64,000 bases of DNA from Vicinamibacteria bacterium (GCA_016934575.1 JAFGSN010000194.1:411-64410); one strand, 5' to 3'. Positions 20,812-41,002 are shown, counted from the first letter of the stretch. Translations and numbers: made by a program. The notes: generated from the letters alone by a model not told the origin.

Positions 20812-20909
20812 GCTCTCGGCGTCCGCAGCCGAAATCCGAGAAGGAGATTCGTTTCGCTTGGATCAATCGGCCGAGGCGATGATTGCGGTCGTTCTATGGC
20901 AACCTCGTG

Positions 20910-20938
20910 ATTGCTTCTGTCTTAATGGTATGTATACT
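20910..20938 (+). promoter_or_regulatory. Sigma70-like promoter TTGCTT-N17-TATACT
   Basis: -35 at 20910-20915 and -10 at 20933-20938 with 17-nt spacing, in an AT-rich intergenic patch upstream of the small TM2-like gene. Confidence 0.35.
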
Positions 20939-20985
20939 CGTTTCATCCTGGATTGCCCGCTAGAGGGCTGGGAGCGAGGTGCGCA

Positions 20986-21303
20986 GTGCCGAACACAGTC
21001 CACAGGCCCGATGTCAATCCCGTCGTCTCGGCTTTGCTGACGGCGTTCGTCCTCAACCTCGGCCACTTGCTCGTCAATGGACAACAACGCAAGTGGCTGA
21101 TGACTCTCATCGCGATGGTCGTCGGCACAATCCTGTGCTGCGTGCCAGGCTGCGTCATCTGGATCTTGAGCGTGATCGATTCGTACCAGACGGCCGTGCG
21201 GCTTCGGAGCGAGGAGATCATCCCGGAGAACGAGTACAGTCAGCCATGGCTCTTTAAGATCGTCCAGTTGATCGACAAGACGGCGAGCTGTGCGCGCGCC
21301 TGA
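20986..21303 (+). CDS. Small TM2-domain-like membrane protein
   Basis: GTG at 20986 preceded by GGAG..GAGG. LNLGHLLVNGQQRKWLMTLIAMVVGTILCCVPGCVIWILSVID fits the TM2 pattern. Confidence 0.45.
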   Translation: MPNTVHRPDVNPVVSALLTAFVLNLGHLLVNGQQRKWLMTLIAMVVGTILCCVPGCVIWILSVIDSYQTAVRLRSEEIIPENEYSQPWLFKIVQLIDKTASCARA

Positions 21304-21761
21304 GCGCTGAAATCAAGGGGAGTGATCTGCACAGGAAGATCTGCCGTGCATGCTGCGCGATGATCGTCGCGTCCCGGAGGATGGGCTCGCCAACGAGACG
21401 CTTAAGTTTCTTTAGCAATTGGACGAGGATTCCAGCCTGCGGGCTTGCATTGATGCCATGCTCCGGGGCGAGAGCATCACGCAGAAGCGAGCCGTCGTGC
21501 GCTCCCAAAGAACGACCCGTCGTCATGGGCGGCGAAGACGTTGCGCCTCAAACGCGCGCATAGAATTCAACGAGAGGCGCCGCCGGATTCTTGGCGCTGT
21601 CGGAACGCCTCGGAACGATCTGCGTGCGGCGAACCTCGTGGTCGCCGGGGCTTTTCGAAGGAGGATACTCTAACGCCTGACGTTGACGCTCGCATATTAC
21701 GACGGACGATCCGAACGTCCGATGCTGCGATCTTCGGTTCTGTTCGCCGGGGAAGCAGGCC

Positions 21762-24700
21762 ATGGTGAGCGGCGAGAAGCCGTTCCGCGACGAGTTGCTC
21801 AGCATCGAGCGACTGGAGGAAAGGGCCAAGTCTCTCGCCGCCCGCCTCACGGTCGATCCAAACGCGCGCGGCGGATCGCGCAACGTGTTCCCGCGTTTCG
21901 ACGACAACGCCCGCGTTTTACGCAAGGCTTATCGCACGCTGGCGGACGACGTGCATGAGGGCAAGTTCGTCACTCCGGCGGCGGAATGGCTTCTCGACAA
22001 CTTTCATCTCGTGGCGTCTGAAATTCGTGACGTGCGCCAGAATCTCCCGCGCGGCTACTATCGCGAGCTGCCCAAACTCGCGCTGCGTGAGCTGGCCGGC
22101 CACGCTCGCGTCTACGCCATGGCCGTGGAGCTGATCCGGCACAGCGACAGCCGTCTGGATCGGCATCAGCTCGAGCGTTTTCTGAACAGCTTCCAGACCG
22201 TGGCCCCGTTGACGATCGGCGAGCTATGGGCCTGGCCCAGCATGCTGAAGCTGGCCCTTGTCGAGAACCTGAGGCGGCTGACGGATGAAATGCTCGTGGC
22301 GCGCGATGCGCGCCGAACGGCCGACGCCGACGTCGAGCGGATCGACGGCGCCGGTAAAGGCTCGCCGCCTGCGTTGCCGCCGATCCTGCACATGGCCTAC
22401 GTCGTTCAGCTTCTTCAACGCGCACGCGAGTACGGTCCGCGACTTGCGATCCTCCGCGAGGCGGTGGATGCGCACCTGGCCGCCCGGCATCTGACGTCCG
22501 AGGATGCGATCCGAGACGAGCATCAACGTCAGGCCGCCGCCCAGGTCACGGTGGCCAACCTTATAACGAGCCTTCGTCTCTGCTCCACGCTCGATTGGAG
22601 TCAGCGCTTCGAGGCCGTGAGCCTGGTCGAGCGCGTTCTGCAACGCGATCCGGCCGGCGTGTACGGAAGCATGGATTTCCTGAGTCGCGACCGTTACCGC
22701 CAATCCGTGGAGGAGCTGGCCGAGGCCACCGGGGAGGCTCAAATGCGCGTGGCTTTGCGCGCGGTCGAGAGCGCCCGTCAAACCGCGGAAAGCGACTCGC
22801 CGGCCGATCGAGGCGCCCACGTCGGCTTTCACCTGATCGGCAAGGGCCGTCGCGGCCTTGAAACCGACGTGGCTTTTCGTCCCGGTCTCGCCAAACGTAT
22901 TCGGCGCTTTGTATTCGCCCATACGACCGCCGCCTACCTCGGAGCGATCGGATGCGTGACGGCGCTGTTGATCGCCCTGGCGCTCGCTTACGTTCGCCGG
23001 CAGGGAGGCTCGCTCTGGACGCAGGCCTGGGCGGCTATGTTCCTGGCGCTGCCGGCCAGCGAGATGGCCATCGCCTTCGTTCAACGACTGGCCGCCCGCT
23101 TCGCGCCGCCGCGTCGTCTTCCACGCTTCGACTACCAGGCGGGAATCCCCGAGAGCGGCCGGACCATGGTGATCATACCGGCGCTGCTGACGAGCGTGGC
23201 CGAGGTCCAGAGGCTCATCGAGCATGTCGAGGTTCTCGCCCTGGGGAATCTCGATCCAAGAATACATTTCGCGATTCTTGGCGACTATGCCGACGCTTCC
23301 ATGCGCGAAACGCCGGAAGACGAACCGATTCTCTCGGCCGCCCGGGAGGGCGTCGAGGCGCTGAACGCCCGCTACGGCGAGGGTCGCGCGGATCGTTTCT
23401 TTCTCTTCCATCGCATGCGGCAGTGGAACGCCGCGGAGCGTTCGTGGATGGGTTGGGAGCGCAAACGCGGGAAAATCGCGGAGTTCAACCGTCTCTTGCG
23501 AGGAGCGAAGAACACGAGCTTTGAGACGCAGGTCGGCGACCTGAGCGTCCTCGCCGCGGTCCGTTACTGTCTCACTCTCGATTCCGACACACGCTTGCCG
23601 CGGGACGCCGCCAAGAAGCTGATCGGCATCATTGCGCATCCGTTGAACCGTCCCCGCTTCGATCCGCGTGAAGGGCGCGTGACCGAGGGTTACGGGATTC
23701 TGCAACCGCGAGTCAGCATTACCATGGCGAGCGCCGTCGGCTCGCTCTTTGCGCGAGTTTACGCCGGACACACGGGAGTCGACCCCTACACCACCGCCGT
23801 GTCGGACACGTACCAGGATCTTTTCGGCGAAGGGATCTTCACGGGCAAGGGGCTTTATCACGTGGACGCATTCATGGCGGCTCTTGAAGGGCGTGTCCCC
23901 GAGAACGCCCTCCTGTCGCACGACCTGTTCGAAGGCGTTTATGCGCGCACCGCGCTCGTCACGGACGTGGAGGTGGTGGACGACTATCCGGCGAGCTTCC
24001 TCGCCCATGCACGACGCCAGCATCGTTGGGTGCGTGGCGATTGGCAGATTCTTCGATGGCTGCTGCCTTTCGTCCCGGGTCGATCGGGCCTCATGCGCAA
24101 TCGTCTGCCCCTTATCTCGCGTTTCAAGATTTTCGACAACCTGAGACGCAGCCTGGTGGCTCCGGCGACCGTCGCCTTGCTGCTTCTGGCATGGACGCTG
24201 CTGCCGGGCAGCCCGCTGGTCTGGACGTCCGCCGTCTTGGTCGCGCTTGCGCTTCCTCTCTATCCGCTTCTTCTGGCGATGCTCGCCGGTCCAAGACCAA
24301 GACAGCCGTGGCGCGTGTTCCTGCGGTCGACGTGGGAGGAGGCGAAGACCGCTCTCGCTCGGACGGCCTTGCAGCTTTCGTTCGTCGCGAACCATGCGGC
24401 CGAGATGGTGCACGCCATCACCGTCACCCTCTTCCGTCTCGTGTTCACCAGGCGCCGCCTGCTCGAGTGGGAGACGGCCGCGGCCAGCGGGGTTCGGGCT
24501 TCCGGCATGGCGCGTCGCGCCGGACCGTGTTTTTTCTTCCTGGAGATGATCGCCAGCCCGGCCATCGCGTTGGCGGGCCTTGTCCTCATCACCGTGGCGC
24601 GTCCAGGCGCGCTCTTGACGGCGCTGCCTCTGCTCGCATTGTGGGCGACCGCGCCGTTCATCGCCTTTGGTCTGAGTCGGCCGAAAACACGACGGCACGC

Positions 24701-27700
24701 CGATCTCTCGCCGGAGGATCGCCGCAGTCTGCGCCTCATCGCTCGCAAGACGTGGCGATACTTCGAGGCGTTCATGGGTCCGGAAGATCACGGCCTGCCC
24801 GCCGACAACTTTCAGGAAACGCCCGAGCCCCGTGCGGCTCACCGGACCTCGCCCACCAACATCGGCATGGGATTGCTCGCGACGCTTTCGGCGCACGATC
24901 TCGAATTCATCCCGACGGAAGAGCTGATCGAGAGAATCGACCGGACCTTGTCAGCCATGGAAAGCCTGGAGCGTTTCGAAGGCCACCTGTTCAACTGGTA
25001 CGACACGCAGAGCCTGGCGCCGCTTCCGCCGCGCTACATTTCCTCGGTCGACAGCGGGAACCTCGCGGGCGCTCTCCTGACCGCGGCCGAGGGCCTGCGC
25101 CGAATCAGTCGCGCGCCGCACGCCGCACGGGCGATTGGCGAGAGAATCGAGGACTTGGCGCGACGCGCGGACCTGTTCGCGAGCGGGATGAACTTCCGGC
25201 AATTCTATGATCCAAAACGCAGGATGCTTTCCATCGGCTATCGTCTCGCGGACGCCGACGGGCCGGGGCGTCTCGATTCCTCCTACTACGACCTTCTGGC
25301 CTCGGAAGCGCGTCTGGCGAGCTTCATCGCCATCGCCAAGGGCGACGTTCCGGAGACGCACTGGTTCCACTTGAGCCGGCTCGTCACCAGCGTGAACGGA
25401 AATCCGACGCTCCTGTCCTGGAGCGCGACCCTGTTCGAGTACCTGCTGCCGCTGCTCATGATGCGGAGTTATCCGGGAACGCTTCTCGACCAGTCGTGCC
25501 GGATGGCCGTGCGCCGGCAGATCGAGTTCGGAGCGGAGCGCGGCGTGCCTTGGGGAATTTCGGAATGCGCCTACAATCTCGTCGACCGACACGACAATTA
25601 CCAGTACAAAGCCTTCGGCGTTCCCGGCCTCGGCCTGAAACGGGGTTTGGGCGACGAGTTGGTGGTGGCTCCGTACGCCACGGCGCTCGCCGCAATGATC
25701 GAGCCTGAGCAGGCCGTACGGAATCTGCGTCGCCTGACCGAGGAGGGACTCGAGGGCGATTACGGTTACTATGACGCCATCGATTACTCGCACACGCAGA
25801 GGGACGAACCCGATAGACTCTCGCCGCGAACGTCGCGACCGCAAGGCGCCGTCGTGCGGGCCTACATGGCGCATCACCAGGGCATGACGCTCGTCTCCCT
25901 CGCCAACGTGCTCCTCGGCCAGCCGATGATCGAGCGTTTCCATGCCGATCCGCGCGTCAAGGCGACGGAAATGTTGTTGCAGGAGCGCGTTCCGCGCCAT
26001 GCGCCGACGATGCAGCCTCGGCCGGTCGAAGAGACACGGGCGGCGCCCGCGCCCGCGGTCGCGGTGCGTCGTTTTCGATCGCCGCACACGGCTTTTCCGC
26101 ACGCGCAGTTTCTGTCCAACGGCAGCTATGCCACGATCGTGACGAATGCGGGAGGGGGCGCCAGCTTCTGTCACGGCCGCGTGGTGACGCGCCATCGCCG
26201 GGATCAGACCCGCGATCCCGGAAGCCAGTTCCTCTATCTACGCGACGTCCGAAGCGGGACGGTGTGGTCCGCCACCCATCATCCCGTCGGCAAGGAGTCG
26301 GAGGATTTTCTGGCCTCCTTCCACGTCGACAAGGCGACGTTCCGCCGCCGTGACGAGGACATCGTCACGCAGCTCGACGTCGCGGTCTCCACCGAGCATG
26401 ACGTTGAAGTGCGCCGGCTGTCGGTGACCAACAAGAGCGATCGATCGCGCGAGATCGAGATCACGAGTTACGCGGAGATCGTCCTCGCGCAGCCGGCTGA
26501 AGATCTGGCTCACGCCGCCTTCGGCAAGCTGTTCATCGAGACGGAGTACCTGCCCGAAAGCGCCGCGCTCCTTTGCCGACGCCGGCCGCGCGCGCCGGAC
26601 GAAACGGGAGCGTGGGCCGTGCACGTCCTGAGCCTTGAAGGCCGGGCGCAAGGACCGGTGGAATGGGAAAGCGATCGCGCACGTTTTCTGGGCCGCGGTC
26701 GCGGTCCGGAGAATCCACAGGCGCTCGACGGACGCTCGCTTTCCGGCACGACAGGGATTCTCGTCGATCCCATCGTCAGCCTGCGACAACGCATCCGCCT
26801 CGCGCCGGGTGGTTTCATGCGGCTGTCCTTCGCCACGGGCATGGCCTCTTCTCGAGAAACGGCCCTGGCCCTGGCCCAGAAATACCACGATCCCAGCGCC
26901 GCCGCGCGCACCTTCGCCCTGGCTTTCGCGCACGCGCAAAGCGGTCTCAGGCACCTGGGCATCTCGCAGGAAGAAGCCCTGCTCTTCGATCGGCTGGCCT
27001 CGCGAGTGTTGTACTCGGACGAATCATTGCGCGCGAGCCCGAAAATCCTGGCTCAGTGCCGGCTCGGACAGGAGGGTCTCTGGCCTCACAGCATCTCCGG
27101 CGATCTTCCGATCCTTCTCGTGAGAGTCGTTGAAGAGGACGACCTGCCGCTCGTGCGGCATGTCTTGCAGGCGCAAGAGTACTGGCGGCTCAAGGGGCAA
27201 AAGGCGGACGTCGTCATCTTGAACGAGCACCCGACGAGCTATCTCGATGAGATGCAAACGCAGCTCGCGGGGCTCCTCGACAACGGCCCATGGCGAGCCT
27301 GGAAGCACCGGCCGGGCGGAGCCTATCTCCTCCGTGGAGATCTGATGCCCGAAGCCGAGCGTATCCTGATCGAGGCCGTGGCGCGCGTCGTGCTCAGCGG
27401 CGACAGGGGCGAACTGGCCGCACAGCTCGACCGGCCTTACGCCGAATGGCCGGGACCGGAGCCGGATGAGCTTGCATTCTCCCGCGAATCGCCGCCTGTC
27501 GGATCTTCGCCATCTATTAGTAATGAAGGGATCCCGGCGCCGCCCCTCGCCTTACCGAACGGCTTCGGCGGCTTTGCCGACAACGGACGAGACTATGCGA
27601 TCGTCCTCGAAGGAGACCAGGAGACGCCTCTGCCCTGGGCCAACGTCATCGCCAATCCTTCTTTCGGAACCGTCGTCACCGCTTCGGGTTCCGCCTATAC

Positions 27701-29969
27701 GTGGTCGGAGAACAGCCGCGAGAATCGCTTGACGCCCTTCGCGAACGATCCCGTCACGGATCCCACGGCCGAGGCGTTGTACATACGCGACGATGAAACC
27801 GGCGAGACCTGGTCGCCGACGCCGGGTGCGCTGCTTCGCACTCCCGCGAGCGGCCGCTTCTTGATTCGGCACGGCGCCGGGCTCTCGCGCTTCGCCCGTG
27901 CGACGCACGGCGTTCGCCACGACCTCGACGTCTTCGTGGAATCGAAGGATCCGGTCAAGTTCTCCCTGCTCACGCTCACCAATGAGAGCGGAGGGCCGCG
28001 TCGACTGAGCGTCATCGCCTACAACGAATGGATCCTGGGACCGCCGCGGGCAGGCCAGCAGGCGCACGTCGTCACCGATCTCGACGCATCGACCGGAGCG
28101 ATCCTGGCGAGGAACGCCTACAATCAGGAGTTCCCGGAGCGTGTCGCGTTCGCGCATGCCAGCGAACCATTGCGCTCGGCGACGGGAGACCGCCTGTCCT
28201 TTCTCGGCCGCAACGGCTCCATGACGCAGCCGGCGGCCCTTCGACGCCAGGCGCTATCGGGTCGCTTCGGCGCCGGGCTTGATCCGTGCGCGGCGCTCCA
28301 CGTCTCGCTCACGTTGGCTCCCGGCGAGAGTCGCCGCGTCGTTTTCCTCTTGGGTCAAGCTCGAGATACGCAGCATGCCCGCGAGCTTCTAGGGCGATAC
28401 GGGCAGGTCGACGCCGCCGAGGAAGCGCGGGAAACCGTGCGCCGTTTCTGGGATGAGACGCTGGGCGCGGTTCAGGTGCGCACGCCCGACGATTCTTTTG
28501 ACCTGCTGATGAACCGTTGGCTTCTCTATCAGGACATCAGTTGCCGCTTGTGGGCCCGCTCGGCCTACTATCAGCCCGGCGGCGCTTTTGGTTTCCGCGA
28601 TCAGTTGCAGGACGTCATGGCTCTCGCGTACTGCCGGCCGGATCTCATGCGGGAGCATCTGCTGCGCGCGGCGAGCCGGCAGTTTCTCGAAGGCGACGTC
28701 CAGCACTGGTGGCACGAGCCGAGCGGCCGCGGCATTCGCTCCCGCTGCTCCGACGATATGCTATGGCTTCCCTATGCCGTCGCGCACTACGTCCGGACGA
28801 CGGGAGATGCGGGCATTCTGGATGAGCGCGTGCGCTTTCTCGAAGCGCCGATCCTCGCCCCTGGCGAGGACGAGGCTTACGGTCAGCCCCGCGTTTCGAA
28901 AGAGGCGCAGCCGCTTCTTGACCACTGCCTGCGCGCCATCGACAAGGGAATCACGATCGGCGCTCACGGCCTTCCGCTCATCGGCACGGGAGACTGGAAT
29001 GACGGCATGAATCGCGTGGGACGGGAAGGGCGCGGCGAAAGCACGTGGTTGGGTTTCTTTCTTCACGGCATCCTGAGTGAATTCGCGCCCTTGTGCGAGT
29101 CGCGCGGCGAAAAGGCTCGCGCCGAGCGCTACCGCAACAAGGCCCACCGCCTGGCGACCATGCTGAAACGCACGTGGGACGGCGAGTGGTACCGGCGCGG
29201 CTATTACGACGACGGCATGCCTCTGGGTTCGGCGCAGAACGACGAGTGTCAGATCGACTCGATCGCGCAGTCTTGGGCCGTGCTTTCCGGCGCTGTAACC
29301 GTGGGTCATGCGGATCGCGCCATGGACGCGGTCCGCACTCACCTCGTCCGGCGAGGTCCGCAAGTGCTGCCGCTTCTCACGCCTCCTTTCGATTGCTCGG
29401 CGCAGGAACCCGGCTACATCAAGGGCTATCCTCCCGGCGTGCGTGAGAACGGCGGTCAATATACCCACGCCGCCCTCTGGGTCGTGATGGCCATGGCCAA
29501 GCTCGGCAGCGGGGACGAGGCGGTCGAGCTGTTCCACATGATCAACCCCATCAACCACACGCGCGCGCCGGCCGACGTCGAGCGCTACAAGGCCGAGCCG
29601 TACGTCGTCGCCGGCGACGTCTGCGCCCACCCCGCGCATGCCGGGCGCGCCGGCTGGACCTGGTACACCGGCTCGGCGGGCTGGATGTATCGCGCGGGTC
29701 TCGAGAGCATCCTCGGGCTTCGGCGTCGCGGCTCCGTCTTCGAGATTGATCCCTGCATTCCCTCGTCATGGTCCGAATATTTCGTCGTCTGGCGTCTCGG
29801 CCGGACGTGTTACGAGATCGCGGTCACCAATCCGGAAAGCCGCTGTCGTGGCGTTGCCAAGGCGAAACTGGACGAAATCTCCGTGGACCCGAGCGCCGTC
29901 CCTCTTGTGGACGACGGTAAAACCCACCGCGTCAAGGTGACCTTGGGTTCAGTCGTGAGAATGTCTTGA
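21762..29969 (+). CDS. cgs: Cyclic beta-1,2-glucan synthase (Cgs/NdvB/ChvB-type; GT84 + GH94-like domains)
   Basis: Single 2735-aa ORF. The N-terminal region is followed by TM helices. Next is a processive-GT block ([16 protein letters not shown]...GYGILQPRV). The C-terminal (alpha/alpha)6 phosphorylase-like region carries [11 protein letters not shown]. Confidence 0.88.
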
Positions 29970-30129
29970 TTTTTCCGCTGCCGGACTTCCCGGCGCGTTC
30001 CTCAGGCTTTACAAACTACTGCCTGAGATTGACCGGTCTGGACGACACCGACCGAACAACGATTCACTGGACCGCGGCCCATTTTTACCGGTCCGTGGCA
30101 GAGACTACTCCGTGTTGTTTCTGGCTATT

Positions 30130-31752
30130 TCACCTTGACGACACGGCCTGCTTGTACGCGTCCCGGATACGTTCCAGGTAGCCGCCCGACTTGTGGTACG
30201 CGGCGCTGTCCTCAGGCTTCGGATCGACACGCCTGCCGCGGGGCAGAGCGGCTTTGCTGAGCGCCTCCGCGTCGACGGCGGCGTCCTTGGCTTTCAGGAG
30301 CGCGACCGCCGCCGACACGGCGCTGCCTAGGGCGGCGCCGACATGGCCGATGGCGACGACCGGACGGTTCCAGATGGCGCTGATCCTGCGCATGATCTGA
30401 TCGCTGGCCGTGGCGCCTCCGGTCGCGAACAGGGGGAGCTTCGACTCGGGAGCGAAGGCGCGCGAGGTCAGATAGACCGCGGCCAGCGAGAAGTCGATGA
30501 TGCCGCCGTAATCGCTGTTCAGATCGGCCGACTTGTAACCGATACGGATCAGATCGAACGCCGGCGATACGGGGAAGGATTCGTTATCGGGTTGCCACAT
30601 GAACACGGTCGTTCCCGGGTTGTGCCTGGCGAGGGCGGATTCGCCCGGCGCGTAGTCCGACTTGGCGATGCCGTGCAGCGCGCGGACCCGGTCCCAGACC
30701 ATGGCGCCGTTCGTCCGGCATCCGAACGTGAACGGGCGGCCGATTCCATCGTACATCGCGTTGGCGAAGCCCTCGTTGTCCATGGTCTTGCCGTCGGTGG
30801 AAACCATGTTGACGAACGACGTTCCGAGGCTCAGAAGGTCGCTCTCAATCAGCACCTTGGTCTGAGGATTGTCGCCCGATCCTGCCGCTATCAGACAGTC
30901 CGGCGAGAGTCCGTACTTGGTCGTGAAGTACGGGCACAGCCGGCCGACGGCGCTGTCCGGCGGGACGAGCCCGGGGAGCTTGTCTTTGAGGGCGTTTGCG
31001 CCGCCGGGCAACCCCGCGGCCGCGGCGTCGATCAGAGTCTGCGACCAGGCCTTGGAACGATAGTCCATGAGCGAGGTTCCGCAGCCGTTGCCGAAGTCCC
31101 AGGGAACGCCGGGATCGGCGCAGAGCACGGCCGGAATGAAGCTGCTGATCAGTTGCACCTTCCACGTGTCCCGATAAGTGGCGGGAAACTGCTGGCCGAC
31201 GCGCCGCATGACGGCGCCGGTGAATCTGAGAGGCGAATCCGAGCCCGAGATTTCGATCATGGCCTTCTTGCCGCCGGCGCCTTGGCGCAGAGCGGCGGCC
31301 TGATCGGAGGTGTTTGAAGTTTTCCAGATCGGAGCGGCGCCGTATGAAAAGGCGTCGCCCAGAAGGGCGACAAGATCGGAATCGGCCGAGCTTTTCTCTT
31401 TCAGGGACGCGAACAAGGCCGGAGCGCGACCGTTCAGATATACATGGCCGTGTTGTTGGCCCGACACGTTGATGGCCGCGACCGAAGACAGATCGACGCC
31501 CTCGGTTTTCCAGTCGGCCAGGAGCGCGTCGAGCGACGCCAGAAACATCCGCGGAGGCTGATCGGCTTCGCCGGGCACCCGCGGCGGGACGATGTAATCG
31601 CTGAAACTGATGCCAAAACGGTTGAGACGCTTGTCCACGGCATAGTCGAGGCTTTTCTGCCACAAGATCTCGCCGGAGTCGACGTCGATGATCACGCCCG
31701 TCAGGCTCTGGGTGCTGGAATCGAGACCCATGGAGTAACGCTTGACGCTCAT
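30130..31752 (-). CDS. FGGY-family sugar kinase (eukaryotic-type xylulokinase-like)
   Basis: N-terminal MGLDSSTQS resembles the xylulokinase LGxDxSTQ motif; FGGY N- and C-domains. The last gene of the operon; 46 nt after the GT87-like gene. Confidence 0.8.
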   Translation of the reverse strand: MSVKRYSMGLDSSTQSLTGVIIDVDSGEILWQKSLDYAVDKRLNRFGISFSDYIVPPRVPGEADQPPRMFLASLDALLADWKTEGVDLSSVAAINVSGQQHGHVYLNGRAPALFASLKEKSSADSDLVALLGDAFSYGAAPIWKTSNTSDQAAALRQGAGGKKAMIEISGSDSPLRFTGAVMRRVGQQFPATYRDTWKVQLISSFIPAVLCADPGVPWDFGNGCGTSLMDYRSKAWSQTLIDAAAAGLPGGANALKDKLPGLVPPDSAVGRLCPYFTTKYGLSPDCLIAAGSGDNPQTKVLIESDLLSLGTSFVNMVSTDGKTMDNEGFANAMYDGIGRPFTFGCRTNGAMVWDRVRALHGIAKSDYAPGESALARHNPGTTVFMWQPDNESFPVSPAFDLIRIGYKSADLNSDYGGIIDFSLAAVYLTSRAFAPESKLPLFATGGATASDQIMRRISAIWNRPVVAIGHVGAALGSAVSAAVALLKAKDAAVDAEALSKAALPRGRRVDPKPEDSAAYHKSGGYLERIRDAYKQAVSSR

Positions 31753-31798
31753 TCTATGTTCCCCTTTTTCTTACAGTCTTCATTGACGCGCAATACTA

Positions 31799-33229
31799 TC
31801 ACGCCGCGGAGCCCGCGTCGGCGGGTTCGTGCTCGGGAAACGTCTGGTTGGCCTCGATCCGTCGGCGCTCGCTTTCTGTCGTTGGCCGGACTCGCAGCAG
31901 CATGAGCAGCGAGAGGAGCATGACGATCTCGGCGGCGACGAATTGCCACGTGGCATACGGTCCGCCGAAAGGCGCGATCAGGGCCCAGGAGTGACGGTCG
32001 GGAAGGGCGGCAAGGAGAAGTCCCAGGGCGCAGCCGGCGAGGGCGATGGATTCGCGCCTGCCGGAAAGGCGCGGGAAGAGCCCGAGAATCAGCACGGCCA
32101 GCGGAAGGAGCCATACGAGGTTCATGACCCAGGTGAGCGGCCCGGCGAGAAGGACGGCGGTCATGGCACACAGCCAGTACGTTGTTTCTTGAAAACGGCT
32201 CAGATCGTCTCTGCGACGACGGACGGCGATTCCGGCGACAAGGCCGGCGAGGCCGATGATGACGAGCGAGATCGTCGACGTCGCGCGATGCTCGCCGATC
32301 CGCGTGCGCGGCCGGGCCAGCCGGGCCGCCACGATCCGGGCCAGCGAGGCGTTGGCCACGATCTCGAACGACGATTCGCGATAAGCGCGGCCGTCCTTGA
32401 TCACGCGGCCTTCGGGAGCGCCGGAGCGCAGACGCGCGAGCGTCGCGCCATCGAGCAGCATTTCCGACGTGCCCCGCTCGCCGAATCGCGTGATGCGTGG
32501 AAGCTCCCGGAGAACGTATTCACGAACGGCAGTCGGGCCGTTCACGGCCAGCGCCGTCAGGAGCAGGACGAACGCGCCCAGGACGTATCCCGTGAGAACG
32601 CGCCATTTCCGGCGGATGAGCAGGAAGAGCGCCAGATAGCAGACGTTGAGCTTGAGCAGCGTCGCGGCGGCCAGAATCGCGCCGGAAGCCGGACCTCCTT
32701 TGCGGCCCCGGATCAACGGCGTGACGCCGAGGCTGACCAGGAGGAGCGTGACCGCGTCGATCTGGCCGGTCTCGAGGTGCGCGAGCAGCGGATGAAAGAG
32801 AGCGATTAAGGCGGCCAGAGCGCAAGTCGCGCGGCGATCGAGAGTCAGGCCGAGAGCGCGGACAAAGAGCCACACCGAGAGGCCGAGGCACGTCAGGCCG
32901 AAGAGCATCCACAGCCGTTTCGCCGCCGCATACGGCAGAAACGCCAGCGGCTTGAAGAGCGACGCCACGAGCGGCGGATAGAGGAAGCGGCTGTGACGAT
33001 AGGCGTCGATTCCGTCCCAGATCGGAGGGACGTGGTCCGCGTGCGTGCGATAGGGCGACAGGCCGTGCTGGAGTGCCTCGCCCGCGGTGTAGAACGCGGC
33101 GAAGTCGCGTTGTAGGCTCTCGTGGCCGAAGCGCGCCGTGAAGCCGGCGAGACGCGCCAGCGCGAGCACGCAGATGACGCCGATGAGCGCGTTCCAGAAA
33201 ACGAGGCGCGTTTCCCCCGGGCCGTTCAT
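31799..33229 (-). CDS. DUF2029/GT87-like polytopic GT-C glycosyltransferase
   Basis: About 12 predicted TM helices. The internal start MNGPGE at 33229 overlaps the SGNH stop (ATGA). The N-terminal Arg-rich part of the long ORF is unlikely to be coding. Confidence 0.55.
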   Translation of the reverse strand: MNGPGETRLVFWNALIGVICVLALARLAGFTARFGHESLQRDFAAFYTAGEALQHGLSPYRTHADHVPPIWDGIDAYRHSRFLYPPLVASLFKPLAFLPYAAAKRLWMLFGLTCLGLSVWLFVRALGLTLDRRATCALAALIALFHPLLAHLETGQIDAVTLLLVSLGVTPLIRGRKGGPASGAILAAATLLKLNVCYLALFLLIRRKWRVLTGYVLGAFVLLLTALAVNGPTAVREYVLRELPRITRFGERGTSEMLLDGATLARLRSGAPEGRVIKDGRAYRESSFEIVANASLARIVAARLARPRTRIGEHRATSTISLVIIGLAGLVAGIAVRRRRDDLSRFQETTYWLCAMTAVLLAGPLTWVMNLVWLLPLAVLILGLFPRLSGRRESIALAGCALGLLLAALPDRHSWALIAPFGGPYATWQFVAAEIVMLLSLLMLLRVRPTTESERRRIEANQTFPEHEPADAGSAA

Positions 33230-34347
33230 GGCTTTTCCCGTTCCATCATGACACGCACGACCGGCGCCAGGCTTTCGGCCGCGAGCCGGTGGGCGGTCTC
33301 GTTGGGATGCATGTCGATGGGATGGACCCAGAGCGAGCGCGTGGGCCGGCCGCGGAGCGCGGATCGCAGGTCGTGATGAGGCACGCCGGCGGAGAGGCAC
33401 ATGCGGGCGACGGCGTCCGCGACGTCCTCGAAGGGATAGACGCCGTCGAGTCCGACGAGCAACGGCCATGACGCGACGAGCAAACGGCCGCCGCGCGCCC
33501 GGATCCGGCGGTTCATCTCGCGAACGTGCTCTTCAGTTCGGCGCCGGCCCTCTTCGTTGGCCGCGCCCCACATTTCCTTGTACCAGCGCGTCGTTTCCCT
33601 GCCGACGCGGCACGATTCGACGCGGTCGCTCAAGAGCGCGGCCAGGCGCGAGTCGAGAAGGCCGAGGCGCTCTTCGGGCCGGCCGATGAGCATGCGCCCG
33701 CGATTCATTATCCAGTCGTTCACGTAGCTCTGGCGCACCTCGAACGACGCCGCGCGCGCGGCGTCGTTCGGAACCAGCGCGTAGACGAGAACATCCGCCT
33801 CGAGGAGCTCGGCTTCCTCGAAAACCTTCATGAGTCGCGGAAAATCCGTGGCGCGCCTCCCGCAGTTGAGCACCTCGCAGCGGCGGCGCATGGCGGCGTT
33901 CAACAGGCGTTCGAGCACGCGCGGATAGGCGTCCTCTTCCTTGACTCCCTGGCCTTCGGTGAACGAGTCCCCGAGCACCACGACGCGCCGCGCATCGCTT
34001 CGCTTCGGATCGGGCTCCGGCCCCCTGAATCCGAGCGTGTTGTAGCGGAACTCGACGGCCCAGGGAGCGCGATGGGAAACGACGTCGTAGCGGCGCGGCG
34101 CAAGGCCGAGATAGCGGGCGCGGGCTTCCGGACGGCGGAGATCGACGTCGAAGTATCCGCGCGGATTCGTCGGGTAGCAGTCGAGGAGCAGGCGCCCGTC
34201 GGAGCTGCGCAGAAACGCCATGCTCTTGTACGTCTCGGGCGCGTATCCGCGAGCGCGCAACGCGATCTCGAACAGGACGAGACAGGCCGTCACCGACGCG
34301 GCGAGCAGAGCCAGGCGAGCGAGGATTTCCCGCGATCTTCCGCTCAT
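33226..34347 (-). CDS. Membrane-anchored SGNH/GDSL hydrolase
   Basis: N-terminal TM anchor; block I VVVLGDSFTEG; block V DMHPNETAH. It is the C-terminal 373 aa of the artefactual 984-aa ORF 33226..36180. Its ATG overlaps the upstream stop (ATGA). Confidence 0.75.
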   Translation of the reverse strand: MSGRSREILARLALLAASVTACLVLFEIALRARGYAPETYKSMAFLRSSDGRLLLDCYPTNPRGYFDVDLRRPEARARYLGLAPRRYDVVSHRAPWAVEFRYNTLGFRGPEPDPKRSDARRVVVLGDSFTEGQGVKEEDAYPRVLERLLNAAMRRRCEVLNCGRRATDFPRLMKVFEEAELLEADVLVYALVPNDAARAASFEVRQSYVNDWIMNRGRMLIGRPEERLGLLDSRLAALLSDRVESCRVGRETTRWYKEMWGAANEEGRRRTEEHVREMNRRIRARGGRLLVASWPLLVGLDGVYPFEDVADAVARMCLSAGVPHHDLRSALRGRPTRSLWVHPIDMHPNETAHRLAAESLAPVVRVMMEREKP

Positions 34348-36092
34348 GGGATCGAGTACGAGAAGTTGACGCGATAGACGGAGATCGTGTGGCCGATCAC
34401 GGCCAGCGGTCGTCGGGCGCGGAAACGTTCCATCAGCGGTTGCGCCTCGGGAGGAACGTACAGACCCTGCAATGTCGTCGCGCTGATCGCCACGTAGTCT
34501 CCCGGACGCACGTCTCGGATCTCGCGCGGCCGGCGCGGGTAGCTCGGAAGGAACACGGCGTCGATGCCGTAGGCGTCGGGCTCCGCCGTTCCAAAGTAGG
34601 AGAATTTGATCCGCCGGATCCCGCGCGCGCGGAGAAAGTCGCGTAGGCCGGGCAGGTCCTGTCCCCAATCGAGGTTGGAATCGACAAGGAGCCTGTGCCC
34701 TTTTTCCGGCCCGCCGGCCAGCTCGTTGAAGTACGCCAGATAATGGGGATGCGCGCGCAGCGTGCTGGCGGCGTGCCACGCGAGCAGGGCGACCGCGACC
34801 CATCGCGCGCGTCGATTGCGGCAGGACAGGGTCCAGCCGCATGCGCGGCCGGCCGCCACGATGAGGAAGGGCAGGACCGGAAGCACGTGGCGGTGGCCGA
34901 TGTTGATCGAACGCGACATGCTGATCAGCAGGTAGATGACGGGCGGCCACCACAAAAACCATTCGGCCCGCGCCGACCTCGGGCGCCTGAGAGCCAGCGG
35001 CACGGCCGCGAGCGCCAGCGTGAGAAGCGGCAGCGGAGTCTTGAAGAGCAGCGTCAAGGGAAAGTAGTACCACCATCCCGTTTCCGAGGTCCTGCCCATG
35101 AGGAACGCCGGCCGCGTCCGGGTATGGGCCATGAAACGTTGGAATCCGTAAAGGTAGGCTTCGGGCAGAAGGCTCAAGCGCTCGGCAACGCGGAATCCGC
35201 CCGCGACGACGCGGTTCTCGGGGACGACCAGCGAGCGATCGAAAGACGCGTTGACGGCGGGTTCGGCTGCCGTGGGCGAGTTGAATCCGTAAGACGCCCA
35301 GATGACGGCGGCGGAGACGATCGCGGCAAAGACGGCGAGGGCGATGACGACGAGAATCCGCGCGAAGCGCGTTTTCACGATGACTGCCGCGGAAGATCCG
35401 AGACGAAAGCCGGCGACGGGGAGCGGCGCGTTCGATAGCGCCAGTCGGAGCGCGGGAACGCCGGCCAGGCCGACGAGCGCCGCTCCCGAGAACTTCGTGG
35501 CGAACGCGCATCCCGAGACGAGCGCGGCCAGCGCGAGACGAGACCAGGTCACGCGCTCGAAGACGCGCTCCCAGGCGGCGACGGACCCGAAAAGGAAGAG
35601 ACTGACGGCGAGATCGTTGGTGACGAGGCTCCCGTGCGCCAACAGGCTCGGGCTGAACGCGAAGAGCCAGAGGCCGCAGAGACCGGATGTCGTCCCGAAG
35701 TGGCGGCGTGTCCACAAGAAGATGGAGAGACCCAGCAGGCAGCCGAGTCCGACGACGACCAGGCGGCCCCTGAGGAGCAACGCGCCGGCGTCGTTCCAGC
35801 GATAGAGAAAGCGCCGTCCGAACTCCCAGGGGTGATGCTCTCGCCATGCGACGTCGTCGAGACGGTAATGGACGTTCATGAACAGCAGCGGCCAGGCGGC
35901 CAGGCGTCGGAGAAAGGGCGGATGATCGGGATTCAAGCGATGGTCGGCCAGGGTCAGGCTCATGTATCCGGGCGGCAGGTGAATGACCTCGTCGTATGTC
36001 CCGGACATGCGCATGAGGCTCGATATCGCCAGACTGGCATAGATCGCCAGGCACGCGCATGCCGCCGCCGCGACGAGCAGCCGCCGTTTCAT
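34344..36092 (-). CDS. ArnT/PMT-family (GT39/GT83-like, COG1807) polyprenyl-phosphate-sugar-dependent GT-C glycosyltransferase
   Basis: 582 aa with about 11 TM helices. The loop-1 acidic motif GTYDEVIHLPPGY (the PMT/ArnT 'DE' motif) is present. The start overlaps the S8 gene stop (ATGA). Confidence 0.72.
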   Translation of the reverse strand: MKRRLLVAAAACACLAIYASLAISSLMRMSGTYDEVIHLPPGYMSLTLADHRLNPDHPPFLRRLAAWPLLFMNVHYRLDDVAWREHHPWEFGRRFLYRWNDAGALLLRGRLVVVGLGCLLGLSIFLWTRRHFGTTSGLCGLWLFAFSPSLLAHGSLVTNDLAVSLFLFGSVAAWERVFERVTWSRLALAALVSGCAFATKFSGAALVGLAGVPALRLALSNAPLPVAGFRLGSSAAVIVKTRFARILVVIALAVFAAIVSAAVIWASYGFNSPTAAEPAVNASFDRSLVVPENRVVAGGFRVAERLSLLPEAYLYGFQRFMAHTRTRPAFLMGRTSETGWWYYFPLTLLFKTPLPLLTLALAAVPLALRRPRSARAEWFLWWPPVIYLLISMSRSINIGHRHVLPVLPFLIVAAGRACGWTLSCRNRRARWVAVALLAWHAASTLRAHPHYLAYFNELAGGPEKGHRLLVDSNLDWGQDLPGLRDFLRARGIRRIKFSYFGTAEPDAYGIDAVFLPSYPRRPREIRDVRPGDYVAISATTLQGLYVPPEAQPLMERFRARRPLAVIGHTISVYRVNFSYSIP

Positions 36093-39000
36093 CGCGTTGC
36101 TCGCGATCCGCGCGAATCGCTCTCGATGCCGCCGGAAGAACGCTCGGGAAGAACGGCGAACACGAGATCGTCGCGTTCATCGAGATCGCCCGGCGTACAG
36201 GGACCCGGATCGTCGCTCAAGCGGAGCTGAGCGCGCACGGCCTGCAGCGCGCCGCGCGGCAGAACGAAAGCGGCGTTGAGCGTCTGCGCGCCGGCGTGAC
36301 TTGGGCGAAGCGTTTCGATCCATTCCCAGTCGGGAGCCGCGGCGTCTCTGGCGTGAAAAACGTCGACTTTCGCGGATTCGAACTCAGGGGCCGCCCAGAC
36401 GGTCACCTCGACGCGCACCGTCGCTCCCGGCGAGAAGACGGCGCCGGAAGCGGAGGAGATGCGGATGCGATCCACCGACGCGTCGATGTGGTGCGTTCCC
36501 GCCGCGCCGTCCTCGCAGGCGCCGTCCAACGTGTTGGGAGCGTTGATCTCGGGCCCGAGCGGGCCGCGGCCCCACAAGAGCGTCGCGGAGTCGCACGCGC
36601 GGCGCGGTTTGGCGCACATGGGAACGCGCAAAACGGCGTTATAGCGCGCGCGACTGTTGAAGGTCGAGATCGTCATGATCCGGGACGCGCCGACGTTGCC
36701 GGCGGCGTCGTGGGCGCGCGCTTCGAGAAGATGCTCGCCGTCCACCTCGAGAGTCGTGTCCCATTCGTATGCGTAGGGCGGAACGATGTCAGCGTGGCGC
36801 ATCAGGCCGTCCACGTGGAATTCCACGCGATCCAGACGCGTGTCGTCCGAGGCCGAGGCCGCGACAAGAACCTGGCCGGAGACCGACGAATCCGCGGCGG
36901 GCGAGACAAGCGACACGACGGGCGGCGCGGGGTCTTTCATCCGCGGCAAGGCGCGAGTCAGAACGAGCGGATTTCCCGGAGACGCCGCGTCGAGCGGCCA
37001 GAGTGGCGTTCCGCCATGAATCGGCGTTTCCGTGCGCAGCGCCGTCAAGACGCCGCTTTCAAGCCGGCCGAGATCGCCGTCTCGGCTCACCAGCGGGTAG
37101 TGAACGGCGAGATCGAGCCGGCCGTCGCCGTCGAGATCGCCGGGAACGATCACGGCGGCGGGCGCGTAGAGCGGACGTTCATTCGCGCCATGAAGCCGCC
37201 AGGATCGCGTCGTCGTGCCGTCTCTTCGCATCGCGAGAAGAAGCGCCGCCGGACGACGTAAAGGCGCCTCGCGCTCGTCTTTCGCTAGACGCAGTATGTT
37301 CTCGACGGCGATCATGCCGTCCGCGTCCCGGCGCGTCTCACGCGCGCGACGGCGACTGTCGCCGTGGACGCCGGGCGAGGAACGACGGCGTTCGTCGGGA
37401 TATGACGCGGCCGGCGTTTCGGCGACCACGAGAATCTCGGGGTAGCCGTCGCCGTCCACGTCGGCGAGGGCCGGCGCGCCGAACCCTTCCTCGCCCGGAA
37501 AAGTCTTCGGCCACGTCCGTGAAAACGACGATCCATCCGTCCGGAGCACGTGCAAGGCAGGGCCGTCGGCGGCGACGATCTCCAATCGGCCGTCAAGATC
37601 GAGATCGCCCAGCGCGAAGGAGAAATCATGTCGATACGACAGAACCAGGGGCCAGCCGGGCAACATGGATCCGTCGGCGGCCAGAACCGCGAGGATTTTC
37701 CGTCCTTCAACCACGGCCATTAGAACGATCTCCAGACGCCCGTCTCCAATGATATCGGCCGCCGCGATCTGTCGCGGCACGCCCTCGAATGCCGGCGCGC
37801 GCCAGGCCACGGTTTCGCCGTCGCTGTTGTAGAGCCGCAAGCGAAAGAACGAAGGCGTCGAGCCCTCGACGATCAGGATCTCCTTTCGGCCGTCCCCGTC
37901 GAAATCGGCGGCGAGCACGCGTGGCGCGGGAGAGTGCGACAGCGAGTCGTTATGATCCGCGATCGAGATCGGGAAGCGGCCGGCGATCGGCGCGCCTCCA
38001 AGGCGCCAGGCATGGAGATGGGCCATGCGCGCCCCATGATCGCTCCCCAACGCCAGAAGCTCGGTCTGGCCGTATCCGTCAAGATCTTCGAGCACGGGCA
38101 ACGCCATCTGGAAATTGATCGCAATGGCGGACGCGAGGAACACGCTCCGGCCGTCGCCGCGCACGATGCGTAATCGATGGGCGTCGGTCGCGATCGTCTC
38201 GTCGCCGGCGCACGGATCAAAATCTCCGACCGCGGGCCGAAGAAAGGCGGCGCGGGCGAGGTCCAGGGAAACGGGCGGCGCCGAATGGAACGGTAAGAAA
38301 TGAAGCCTCGCGGGCAGATCGTGGCGCGGCGTGTCGATCGTCGCCAGAACGACGCGCGGCTCGCCGCCGGCGTCTTTGACGATCGCCATGCCTCCGTGCG
38401 CCGCCGGCGCGGCGTTCAGCCGGCGCGGCTCACGGTCAAAAAGAAGATCAGGCTCGACGTAGACGACGATCGTCTCCTCGCTCGTGAATCGCTCGTTATG
38501 CGCCCTGAGCCTCAGGCTGTAGTAGTCCGCCTGCTCGACTTGCGGCACGTCCCAGTGCGCGAGTCGGGCGTTCTCCGTCTCGCGCCGCCCTTCGCCCGCG
38601 AGCGTTACGCCCAGCGAAGACCAGTCGCCCGTCGGCCGCGTCCCCCGCGTCCATGTCAGGTCGTAACCGTGGAAGGACGGTCCGGTGGCGGTGCCCCTGA
38701 TGGGAACGCGGCCGCCGGCGCGGAGCACCGGCGTCGCGCTCAGCCGCCGCGCCGGCGGCGGCGCCGTGATCGCGACGTAGTCGACCCGAACGCAGACCTG
38801 ATCGGCGAACGTTCTTCCCGCGTCGTCAAAGGCCGACAGCCGAAGCGTGTAATCGCCGTCGGGCAGCGCGCGCGCATCGAAGACGCCGAGCGCTCCGCCT
38901 TTGGCCGTTTGCGAGCTTTCGTGAAGAAGACGCCAGGAGCGCGGGCGCGAACCGCGGCCGTACTCCAGGACATAACGCCGGAACCCGGGGCCCGCGGCCA

Positions 39001-40552
39001 GGCCGCGGACGTTCACGACTCCGCGCAGCGCAGCACCCTCCGGGGGATCAAGAATGCGAGAGTCGAGAGCGCCTTTGGCGTCGAGCGCCCGGCGGGCGTC
39101 GACGCGGCCTTGCCCGGAGCGATCGTCCGCGCCCGGTTTTTCGATGTCGCGGGCGGTCGTTCGCAGGATCTGCCGCACCGCTTCGGGAGAGAGGTCCGGA
39201 TGGCCGGCGAGAAGGAGCGCGGCCAGAGCCGAGACGTGCGCGGCGGCCATGCTCGTCCCGCTGGCGCGCGCATAGCGCTCGCCCACGGGATCGCCGATCG
39301 CCGTTTCGGCGCCGCGCAGCGAGAGAATGTCCACGCCGGGAGCGACGACGTCGAGGGCGGCGCTGGAGCGCGAGAAAACGGCGACCCGGTCCTCGGGATC
39401 GCTCGCGCCGACGGAGATGACGTGCGGCAAGAACGCCGGATGGCGGGGATGTTCGGCGTCGCTTTCATTGCCGGCGGCGGCGACGATGACCGTCCCGAGT
39501 TGGTGGGCGTATTCCAGCGCCTCCGCCAGGGAGCGCGATGTTCCCGTTCCGTTCCACGCAAGCAGGATGACATCCGCGCCGTTCCGGGCGGCGTAGACGA
39601 TTCCGCGCGCCGCCAGTGAATCCCGTCCGTCGCCGGCGTCATCCAACACCCTGATCGCCATGACTTGCGATTCCCAGGCCAGTCCGGCGATGCCTCGGGT
39701 GTTGTCGCCCGTGGCGGCGATCGTGCCCGCGACGTGCGTGCCGTGACCTTGTCGATCCGCGGGGTCGTTGTCCTCGGCCGGGTCGGCGCAGCGGGCGCCC
39801 ACGAAATCCCAGCCGTGAACGTCGTCGACGTAGCCGTTGCCGTCGTCGTCGCGGCCGTTTCCGTGGATTTCAGAGGCGTTGATCCAGATGTTGGCGGCGA
39901 GGTCGGGATGGTCGCGGTCGACGCCCGAATCGATGACGGCGACGACGATTCCATCACCGCGCGTCACGTCCCAGGCGGAAGGCGCGGAGATCTTGCGCAG
40001 ACCCCACAGATCCTCGTAAGGTTGGCCCCAACCGCCCTTCCTTATCAAGTAGGGATCGTTCGGAATCGCGGCTGTTCGCAGGCGGCGGTCGCGCTCGGCG
40101 AATTCGACTTCGTGGTCTTGCGCCAGGCGTGACAGCGCGAGCGGGAGATCGTCGTCTTCGACGTCAAGGAACAGCATCCATGTTCGCGCCAGTGAAGGCG
40201 GATGGAGTTCGCCGCGATGGCGCAGCGCGCGCGACGCGAATCGGGCGCGCACGCGCTCGGCCTGGTCGCGCGAGCTCAGGCCGGGCCGGCGTTTCCTTTC
40301 TCGCAAGAGCGCCGGATGCAGAGGTCGGAGCGCGACCACCGCATGACGTTCAGCGAAGGACGCCAGACGTTCCGAGGACAGGCTCTCGTGGCGTATTGCG
40401 GCGAGTCGCGGAGACCATGCGGCCTCGGCCTCGGCCGCCAGCTCGGGCCGGAGCCGGGCCAGGATCCATGATGGGCCGCACGCGGCCTTGGCCGTGCGCG
40501 CCTGCGACAAGATTCCGAAAAAGGCCATGGCTAAGCCGAGAAGGATTCGCAT
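36089..40552 (-). CDS. Secreted subtilisin-like serine peptidase (S8) with Ig-like domains and FG-GAP beta-propeller repeats
   Basis: Signal peptide MRILLGLAMAFFGILSQARTAKA. S8 triad blocks VAVIDSGVD, HGTHVAGTIAA and GTSMAAAHVSALAAL. At least six FG-GAP-like repeats follow (FDGDGRKEILIV, DIIGDGRLEIVL, DLDLDGRLEIVAAD, DVDGDGYPEILVV, DLDGDGRLDLAV). C-terminal Big-like domains. Confidence 0.85.
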   Translation of the reverse strand: MRILLGLAMAFFGILSQARTAKAACGPSWILARLRPELAAEAEAAWSPRLAAIRHESLSSERLASFAERHAVVALRPLHPALLRERKRRPGLSSRDQAERVRARFASRALRHRGELHPPSLARTWMLFLDVEDDDLPLALSRLAQDHEVEFAERDRRLRTAAIPNDPYLIRKGGWGQPYEDLWGLRKISAPSAWDVTRGDGIVVAVIDSGVDRDHPDLAANIWINASEIHGNGRDDDGNGYVDDVHGWDFVGARCADPAEDNDPADRQGHGTHVAGTIAATGDNTRGIAGLAWESQVMAIRVLDDAGDGRDSLAARGIVYAARNGADVILLAWNGTGTSRSLAEALEYAHQLGTVIVAAAGNESDAEHPRHPAFLPHVISVGASDPEDRVAVFSRSSAALDVVAPGVDILSLRGAETAIGDPVGERYARASGTSMAAAHVSALAALLLAGHPDLSPEAVRQILRTTARDIEKPGADDRSGQGRVDARRALDAKGALDSRILDPPEGAALRGVVNVRGLAAGPGFRRYVLEYGRGSRPRSWRLLHESSQTAKGGALGVFDARALPDGDYTLRLSAFDDAGRTFADQVCVRVDYVAITAPPPARRLSATPVLRAGGRVPIRGTATGPSFHGYDLTWTRGTRPTGDWSSLGVTLAGEGRRETENARLAHWDVPQVEQADYYSLRLRAHNERFTSEETIVVYVEPDLLFDREPRRLNAAPAAHGGMAIVKDAGGEPRVVLATIDTPRHDLPARLHFLPFHSAPPVSLDLARAAFLRPAVGDFDPCAGDETIATDAHRLRIVRGDGRSVFLASAIAINFQMALPVLEDLDGYGQTELLALGSDHGARMAHLHAWRLGGAPIAGRFPISIADHNDSLSHSPAPRVLAADFDGDGRKEILIVEGSTPSFFRLRLYNSDGETVAWRAPAFEGVPRQIAAADIIGDGRLEIVLMAVVEGRKILAVLAADGSMLPGWPLVLSYRHDFSFALGDLDLDGRLEIVAADGPALHVLRTDGSSFSRTWPKTFPGEEGFGAPALADVDGDGYPEILVVAETPAASYPDERRRSSPGVHGDSRRRARETRRDADGMIAVENILRLAKDEREAPLRRPAALLLAMRRDGTTTRSWRLHGANERPLYAPAAVIVPGDLDGDGRLDLAVHYPLVSRDGDLGRLESGVLTALRTETPIHGGTPLWPLDAASPGNPLVLTRALPRMKDPAPPVVSLVSPAADSSVSGQVLVAASASDDTRLDRVEFHVDGLMRHADIVPPYAYEWDTTLEVDGEHLLEARAHDAAGNVGASRIMTISTFNSRARYNAVLRVPMCAKPRRACDSATLLWGRGPLGPEINAPNTLDGACEDGAAGTHHIDASVDRIRISSASGAVFSPGATVRVEVTVWAAPEFESAKVDVFHARDAAAPDWEWIETLRPSHAGAQTLNAAFVLPRGALQAVRAQLRLSDDPGPCTPGDLDERDDLVFAVLPERSSGGIESDSRGSRATR

Positions 40553-41002
40553 GGAGACTTCTGGAGCGGCGCGGTTGCCGTTGCTTTCGCGGGGGCGGAG
40601 TCTGTTTCCGCCCGCCGCCGCCAAGCGTTGACCGCGGTTGCGTGGGCGCGATCCGGGCGCGAAACGTGGAGATGATCGCTGCCGGTGGAACAACGACGGT
40701 TTTGGTCTCCGGTCGTTCAAGGCCGCGGACTCCTGTATGACGCCATCTCATTCTAAGCGAGACGCCCTCAGGACGCTGTCACGAGCACGAGCGTTTGATG
40801 TCAAGTCGCAGCATGGCCGCCAGGCCGCGAAGACGCGCCCTTTGGCGGCGCCGTGCGTCAACTTGGGGGAAAAAGCAAAATCGTGAAGGCGCGGAGGAAA
40901 AGGCATACAGCGCCTGAGGGATGCCCCGCGAGGTTCGTTGAGCAACCTCGTGTGACGTCCTTTGTGTTTCTACCAGGGACGAGCCACGAGCAGGGCGCGT
41001 TC

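Follow-up and report, generated by a model that had tools for sequence, protein, structure and literature searches.

Does the gene for a synthase of cyclic beta-1,2-glucan (Cgs) in a Vicinamibacteria bacterium work together with the genes that converge on it, or does it act alone? The question arises from a stretch of 64,000 nt (GCA_016934575.1 JAFGSN010000194.1:411-64410), the one contig of this genome in the analysis, referred to here as the window. A first-pass annotation, made from the sequence alone, had recognized a giant cgs gene in the window, remarked on the absence of its usual partner genes, and speculated that a convergent operon decorates or processes the glucan in the periplasm. 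We consider it very probable that the gene encodes a solitary, monocistronic Cgs, and that it came to lie tail to tail with the operon by a lineage-specific accident of gene order, without the two forming a functional unit. The gene itself is as first described, a single open reading frame (ORF) that stays open throughout.

21762..29969, plus strand: cgs, ATG start, 2735 amino acids (aa), uninterrupted

The protein aligns collinearly and over its full length with the solved Cgs of Agrobacterium tumefaciens (Atu; 8rf0/8rf9), scoring 2072 bits with one break. Residues 13-1122 match Atu 30-1129 and residues 1125-2690 match Atu 1247-2805. Atu Cgs consists of a cytoplasmic N-terminal scaffold domain, a six-helix membrane domain that holds GT84, a central cyclase domain (979-1535), and a C-terminal half made up of GH94, into which a Rossmann-like subdomain is inserted (PMC10901819). 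The same order of domains is found in the window protein.

21762..22916, plus strand: N-terminal cytoplasmic scaffold domain (NTD), aa 1 to ~385, aligning to Atu 30 to ~400
22923..24677, plus strand: membrane-embedded GT84 module, from a hydropathy scan and the Atu alignment, with GT84 between transmembrane (TM) segments 2 and 3
24675..26039, plus strand: cyclase (CY) domain, GH189, aa ~972-1426, matching 8wy1 (the cyclization domain of Thermoanaerobacter italicus CGS, TiCGS) at E 1e-125 and Atu at E 6e-117
26040..29966, plus strand: GH94 phosphorylase (GP) region with a Rossmann-like subdomain (aa ~1734-1895) and the catalytic domain, from Pfam and the Atu alignment

This architecture agrees in part with the three-part Cgs/NdvB/ChvB layout proposed at first. 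The Cgs identity, GT84, and GH94 all stand. The GH189 cyclase had been omitted, and the N-terminus had been mislabeled as a membrane region: the first hydrophobic segment starts only at aa 388, and the part before it aligns with the cytoplasmic NTD of Atu (PMC10901819). Six TM-like segments (aa 388-413, 422-440, ~796-822, 818-844, 922-948, and 949-972), located by hydropathy scan only and not by a topology predictor, fall into the expected 2+2+2 arrangement (388-440, 796-844, and 922-972). Pfam finds a weak GT2-type stretch (aa 604-833), DUF3131 (993-1087), Glycoamylase (1175-1384), and, for GH94, two supersandwich stretches (best 1956-2198) and the catalytic domain (2229-2652), with E values of 1e-120 to 1e-152. 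Across the GH94 region, including the Rossmann-like subdomain, residues 1733-2690 align contiguously with Atu 1846-2805.

Both the GT84 and the GH94 catalytic blocks align with characterized Cgs. We read the Atu and T. italicus alignments against the residues named in PMC10901819 and PMC10834661, and every one is identical in the window protein.

GT84 D508 = Atu D527: UDP coordination
GT84 D607/D609 = Atu D624/D626: D624 coordinates UDP; both are mutated in the inactive GT construct
GT84 Y676 (GVDPY; Atu GIDPY) = Atu Y694: primer tyrosine, in the IF1h loop
GT84 D721 = Atu D739: catalytic base
GT84 R755-W756 = Atu R773: RW motif
GH189 D1097 = Atu D1104: active-site acid
GH189 E1182 = Atu E1300 and Ti E1356: acid/base
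GH189 E1226 = Ti E1400: supporting residue
GH189 E1268 = Ti E1442: nucleophile
GH189 H1371/H1372 = Ti H1536/H1537: supporting residues
GH94 D in FGFRDQLQD = Atu D2393: predicted active-site residue, mutated in the inactive GP construct
GH94 D2414 (GDWND at aa 2410-2414, second D) = Atu D2528: catalytic acid, likewise mutated to inactivate the phosphorylase

The motif GDWNDGMN, by which the GH94 domain had first been recognized, occupies aa 2410-2417. Because the alignment runs end to end, all named residues are conserved, and six membrane-like segments are present, the identification as Cgs is correct. The family is already well characterized, and the window protein is a further member that had been correctly spotted and named. 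Its gene has a GC content of 0.65, in line with the window and not anomalous.

Public records name the family vaguely. The identical NCBI protein, from a Vicinamibacteria MAG (70,182-bp contig), carries only the name 'DUF3131 domain-containing protein', and no NCBIfam model matches the window protein. Exact-sequence look-ups of the window protein and of the Anaeromyxobacter homolog gave no match, and genomic context was taken from relatives. Homologs number more than 6400, and the best 120 of these share 72-78% identity and are of similar length. They appear under names such as 'DUF3131 domain-containing', 'glucoamylase family', and 'GH36-type glycosyl hydrolase domain-containing', and in some sources as 'glucanotransferase'. 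JGI labels many of them cyclic beta-1,2-glucan synthetase. The names are vague because NCBIfam has no model for Cgs; for clear Cgs orthologs this is an annotation gap and no biological oddity. A literature search returned nothing specific on acidobacterial Cgs or ndvB.

The single break in the Atu alignment lies in the CY domain. A four-helix insert of ~118 aa is absent: the window protein is contiguous where Atu has residues 1130-1246 and TiCGS has chain residues ~153-289. Judged from the alignment, this loss appears as the sole structural difference noted from Atu Cgs. The variable site corresponds to aa 1097-1182 (window ~25050-25307), and no short-form Cgs has been characterized to date. 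The gap raises the question of whether the protein is a cyclic-glucan synthase in practice. Lacking the insert of both structurally studied enzymes, it could make linear beta-1,2-glucan or act in turnover as a glucanotransferase or phosphorylase, and the labels 'glucanotransferase' and 'glucoamylase family' that some sources give to homologs point the same way. Those labels, however, reflect the missing NCBIfam model. The insert of Atu is a protruding four-helix motif that forms back-to-back dimers in a subpopulation of particles and is not part of the active site (PMC10901819). Moreover, the window protein retains the GT84 motifs and the primer tyrosine, as well as all five catalytic or supporting residues of GH189.

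How common the short form is can be seen in other genomes. A genome scan gave at least 600 stretches, 599 of them encoding a relative, and the best 80 together with three from relatives make up a sample of 83 cgs loci. These loci come from at least ten phyla, have flanks totaling 1.03 Mb, and include four from Vicinamibacteria (L009, L016, L032, and L083). Among the fetched homologs, the spacing between the motifs VDSGN and LLASE that bracket the site varies continuously from 67 to 283 aa, even among close relatives. Of the 66 loci that could be measured, ~25 (~38%) have the short form; they belong to Acidobacteriota, Gemmatimonadota, Proteobacteria, Firmicutes, and Planctomycetota. Two of the closest Vicinamibacteria relatives, L032 and L009, have the long form. 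Since its length is variable and the short form is common, the insert does not define the family. It is evolutionarily labile and non-catalytic, and its absence is a minor variant. A switch to linear glucan or to turnover is thus very improbable, and we retain the assignment as Cgs.

By homology to the Atu enzyme, Cgs would be anchored in the inner membrane by six helices, with all catalytic domains on the cytoplasmic side. GT84 would use UDP-glucose to glucosylate its own Tyr676 and would then extend a beta-1,2-glucan on this residue. Over-long chains would be trimmed by the GH94 domain through phosphorolysis, with D2414 as the catalytic acid, releasing glucose-1-phosphate; the GH94 domain of Cgs serves chain-length control (PMC10901819). 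GH189, with E1268 as the nucleophile and E1182 as the acid/base, would close the glucan by transglycosylation onto the chain's own end, giving a ring of ~17-25 glucoses. Purified Cgs alone yields cyclic glucan in proteoliposomes (PMC10901819). Likewise, Cgs alone suffices for synthesis in E. coli, and an exporter is required only for moving the product to the periplasm (PMC11071196). If there is an exporter or modifying enzyme, its gene would lie at some other site in the genome, as in most other bacteria sampled. The physiological role is probably osmotic or envelope adaptation.

The partner genes of known systems are arranged in different ways. In Agrobacterium chvA and chvB are adjacent, as are ndvA and ndvB in Sinorhizobium; cgs, cgt, and cgm of Brucella are dispersed. 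In Brucella, Cgs needs no partner to synthesize the glucan, which the ABC transporter Cgt exports and the periplasmic enzyme Cgm succinylates (PMC11071196). The window had been said to hold no recognizable ndvA/cgt or cgm, and our searches agree: among the gene-sized ORFs of the 64 kb scanned with Pfam there is no ABC-transporter domain and no OpgC-type protein, and a six-frame search of the window found Walker A and LSGGQ-like motifs together in none of the ORFs of at least 150 aa.

That this absence is noteworthy did not survive the comparison. Nearly all of the 83 loci have a solitary cgs, and so do the five closest relatives. An ORF of 600-680 aa with ABC motifs lies within 10 kb of cgs at four of the 83 loci, never adjacent. 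Three of these (L032, L042, and L050) are of the exporter type with a membrane domain by sequence; the fourth, L039, has a pair of nucleotide-binding domains but lacks an evident membrane domain. The L032 exporter, 6 kb upstream of cgs, was considered as a Cgt. Its best matches in the Protein Data Bank (PDB) are ABCB1, Sav1866, and MsbA; its best 60 do not include the entry for Brucella Cgt. It was rejected as a dedicated partner because it is of the generic ABCB/MsbA type. The five closest relatives (77-78% identity) have five different neighborhoods with no exporter beside cgs, and the annotated plasmid copies of Bradyrhizobium and Phenylobacterium also lack an adjacent exporter. Single-linkage clustering of the 904 flank ORFs from the 83 loci gave only one recurrent cluster, the two-component/REC superfamily at 25 loci, too generic to interpret. 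The orphan context of cgs is therefore ordinary, the common state.

Downstream, cgs meets a row of five genes on the opposite strand. Order and families of this convergent row, S8-GT-C-SGNH-GT-C-kinase, are as first reported, and so is the 160-bp gap.

29970..30129: spacer of 160 bp separating the stop codon of cgs from that of the convergent FGGY-like gene, which ends at 30130
30130..40720, minus strand: gene row as a whole (Pfam, NCBIfam), context only and not part of the cgs system
30130-31752, minus strand: FGGY-like kinase, divergent (Pfam)
31799-33469, minus strand: GT87 (Pfam)
~33226-34350, minus strand: SGNH hydrolase (Pfam)
34344-36092, minus strand: PMT_2-like GT-C (Pfam 24.0 bits, under the 26.1 cut-off)
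36089-40720, minus strand: S8 peptidase, 1543 aa, with FG-GAP and Ig domains (Pfam)

All five proteins score far under the NCBIfam equivalog cut-offs. The row is probably an envelope glycoconjugate or protein-glycosylation operon. No intrinsic terminator above shuffled background was found in the 160-bp spacer.

Could these genes process or decorate a periplasmic cyclic glucan, replacing a Cgm-type modification? They lie only 160 bp away, tail to tail, and the window has no cgm or cgt gene that would do the work instead. GT-C enzymes and SGNH acyl-hydrolases act on the membrane's outer face, where an exported glucan would lie. We know of no GT-C enzyme, however, that acts on cyclic glucans. 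The genes are also convergent, so that no transcript is shared with cgs. Conservation of the arrangement was examined in both directions. In the forward test, 22 window neighbors were compared by tblastn with the 83 cgs loci, 53 of which have at least 3 kb downstream. FGGY kinase, GT87, GT-C, and S8 had zero matches in the 1.03 Mb of flanks, the four Vicinamibacteria loci included, and SGNH had one weak, non-syntenic match. None of the four clearly testable genes (FGGY, GT87, GT-C, and S8) is found at the cgs loci of the five closest relatives. In the reverse test, a metagenome scan with GT87 gave 21 loci of 25-51% identity. Neither cgs nor FGGY nor S8 occurs at any of the 21; L092, where GT87 is 44% identical, has no cgs despite 10 kb on the relevant side. 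The SGNH-GT87 pair is kept once, at the closest GT87 locus (L084, 51% identity). Since the GT87 loci are mostly short or distant, this reverse test carries less weight than the forward one.

There is thus no conserved co-location in either direction. The juxtaposition is peculiar to this genome, and a functional link has no support. We regard decoration of the glucan by the operon, as first suggested, as extremely unlikely. A narrower form, in which only this Vicinamibacteria lineage took on the GT-C/SGNH/GT87/FGGY operon for modifying exported cyclic glucan, has hardly better prospects and is very unlikely. If true, the product would be a so far undescribed cyclic beta-1,2-glucan bearing sugar or acyl groups. 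In a milder version, the widespread short-form Cgs clade, with 72-78% identity across Acidobacteriota, Aminicenantes, and Anaeromyxobacter, travels as one gene with no exporter linked to it, and the cyclic glucan that it makes might serve in the cytoplasm or against soil stress in general and not in host interaction. The practical value of the finding is small; the operon link would have been its interesting part, and comparative evidence does not support it.

Several points weigh against a solitary Cgs with an accidental neighbor. A link confined to this lineage could exist even though synteny is not conserved. Only one contig is available, and without an exporter the glucan would stay cytoplasmic. 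Both enzymes with a solved cyclase domain carry the insert that is absent here, so its loss may affect oligomerization or product. Given the intact catalytic residues and the two synteny tests, we nonetheless hold the solitary Cgs to be very probable.

One gene in the window does recur beside cgs elsewhere. This is pgm, for phosphoglucomutase, 12.5 kb downstream of cgs on the same strand, with a minus-strand block of six genes (30130-42361) between the two.

42502..44145, plus strand: pgm, phosphoglucomutase (TIGR01132 equivalog, 890.7 bits versus a cut-off of 778)

No other specific neighbor recurs. The pair occurs in five genomes or plasmids that are unrelated, with 0-24 bp of gap or overlap between the two genes. 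There, pgm directly follows cgs in a Gemmatimonadetes locus (L065, 10161-11795) and a Chthoniobacterales locus (L059, 9441-10361). On the Phenylobacterium zucineum plasmid NC_011143 (L107, 16472-18121) it follows with a 4-bp overlap and is itself followed by stress genes, and on two Polymorphobacter plasmids it comes after a 24-bp gap, as calculated from coordinates. Metabolically the coupling is sensible: glucose-1-phosphate for UDP-glucose comes from pgm, which can also recycle the glucose-1-phosphate that GH94 releases. In Agrobacterium, phosphoglucomutase (exoC/pscA) is required for cyclic glucan synthesis.

The two window genes could then be the remains of a cgs-pgm module that feeds UDP-glucose and recycles glucose-1-phosphate, into which the block 30130-42361 was inserted. 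The five direct adjacencies speak for this, as does the fact that the window pgm is a true equivalog on the cgs strand. Adjacency is rare, however, at two of 59 loci with enough downstream DNA. Six opposite-strand genes separate the pair in the window, and composition gives no sign of an insertion. Furthermore, pgm is a housekeeping gene whose orthology to the cgs-linked copies cannot be demonstrated because it is ~60% identical across all phyla (~60-66%). We find a broken module unlikely and treat pgm as a possible, low-confidence metabolic accessory of cgs in the window.

Two cyclic-di-GMP genes also flank cgs at a distance, both on the plus strand. One encodes a GAF-GGDEF diguanylate cyclase (12704-14899) and the other a receiver-PilZ protein (44509-45339), just after pgm.

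On its upstream side, cgs is preceded by ~950 bp (20812-21761) with no convincing gene, an unusually long gap for so gene-dense a window. The only candidate there is a 116-aa ORF with a TTG start (20953-21303) and a hydrophobic stretch, which has no family match. A promoter and terminator scan of 20700-21900 found nothing above shuffled background and no sigma-70-like promoter. Rfam, run on the whole window, returned a tRNA-Gln only and no match in the gap.

The solitary gene is widespread. The genome scan found it in at least 600 species, and metagenomic proteins of the family number in the thousands. Homologs are present on 173 PLSDB plasmids, 56 of them conjugative, with hosts that include Klebsiella, Escherichia, Pantoea, and Pseudomonas. 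Within the short-form clade, proteins labeled Vicinamibacteria, Aminicenantes, and Anaeromyxobacter (A. oryzae) share 72-78% identity, which exceeds the cross-phylum identity of pgm. High identity across phyla together with ever-changing neighborhoods fits a single-gene unit that moves horizontally, and the sequence comparison suggests frequent horizontal transfer of cgs on its own. AbiEi/AbiEii toxin-antitoxin pairs adjoin cgs at two unrelated loci, on a metagenomic acidobacterial contig (L003, 14756-15714) and on the Phenylobacterium plasmid (L107, 5805-7321). Such neighbors are consistent with cgs lying in mobile or variable regions. Cgs is known mainly from Brucella, Agrobacterium, and rhizobia, and as a solitary mobile gene it is also frequent among free-living soil phyla. 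Given this distribution, cyclic glucans may serve generally in envelope or osmotic adaptation, and interaction with a host may not be their main role.

How does the window protein compare with known systems? Atu Cgs (ChvB; 8RF0/8RF9, PMC10901819) has the same order of NTD, six TM segments with GT84, CY, and GH94 with its Rossmann-like subdomain, and shares the primer tyrosine and every listed catalytic residue with the window protein. Rhizobiaceae homologs have ~45% identity to the window protein across 95% of its length. Unlike the window protein, the Atu enzyme has the four-helix dimerization insert (1130-1246). Its host is a plant pathogen, whereas the window host is a free-living soil acidobacterium. 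In Agrobacterium, chvB sits next to the exporter gene chvA, and no exporter gene lies near the window cgs.

The cyclization domain of Thermoanaerobacter italicus CGS (GH189; 8WY1, PMC10834661) matches at E 1e-125, and E1442, E1356, E1400, and H1536/H1537 are all kept. Unlike the window protein it has an insert in this domain, at chain residues ~153-289. The Cgs-Cgt-Cgm system of Brucella abortus has a synthase of the same family; Cgt and Cgm are known there, whereas the 64-kb window has no homolog of either. The C-terminal ~800 aa of the window protein match GH94 phosphorylases acting on cellobiose, chitobiose, and 1,2-beta-oligoglucan, at E 1e-60 to 1e-90, and share the catalytic Asp in GDWND. 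Those phosphorylases are free-standing, soluble catabolic enzymes, whereas in the window protein GH94 is fused to the synthase.

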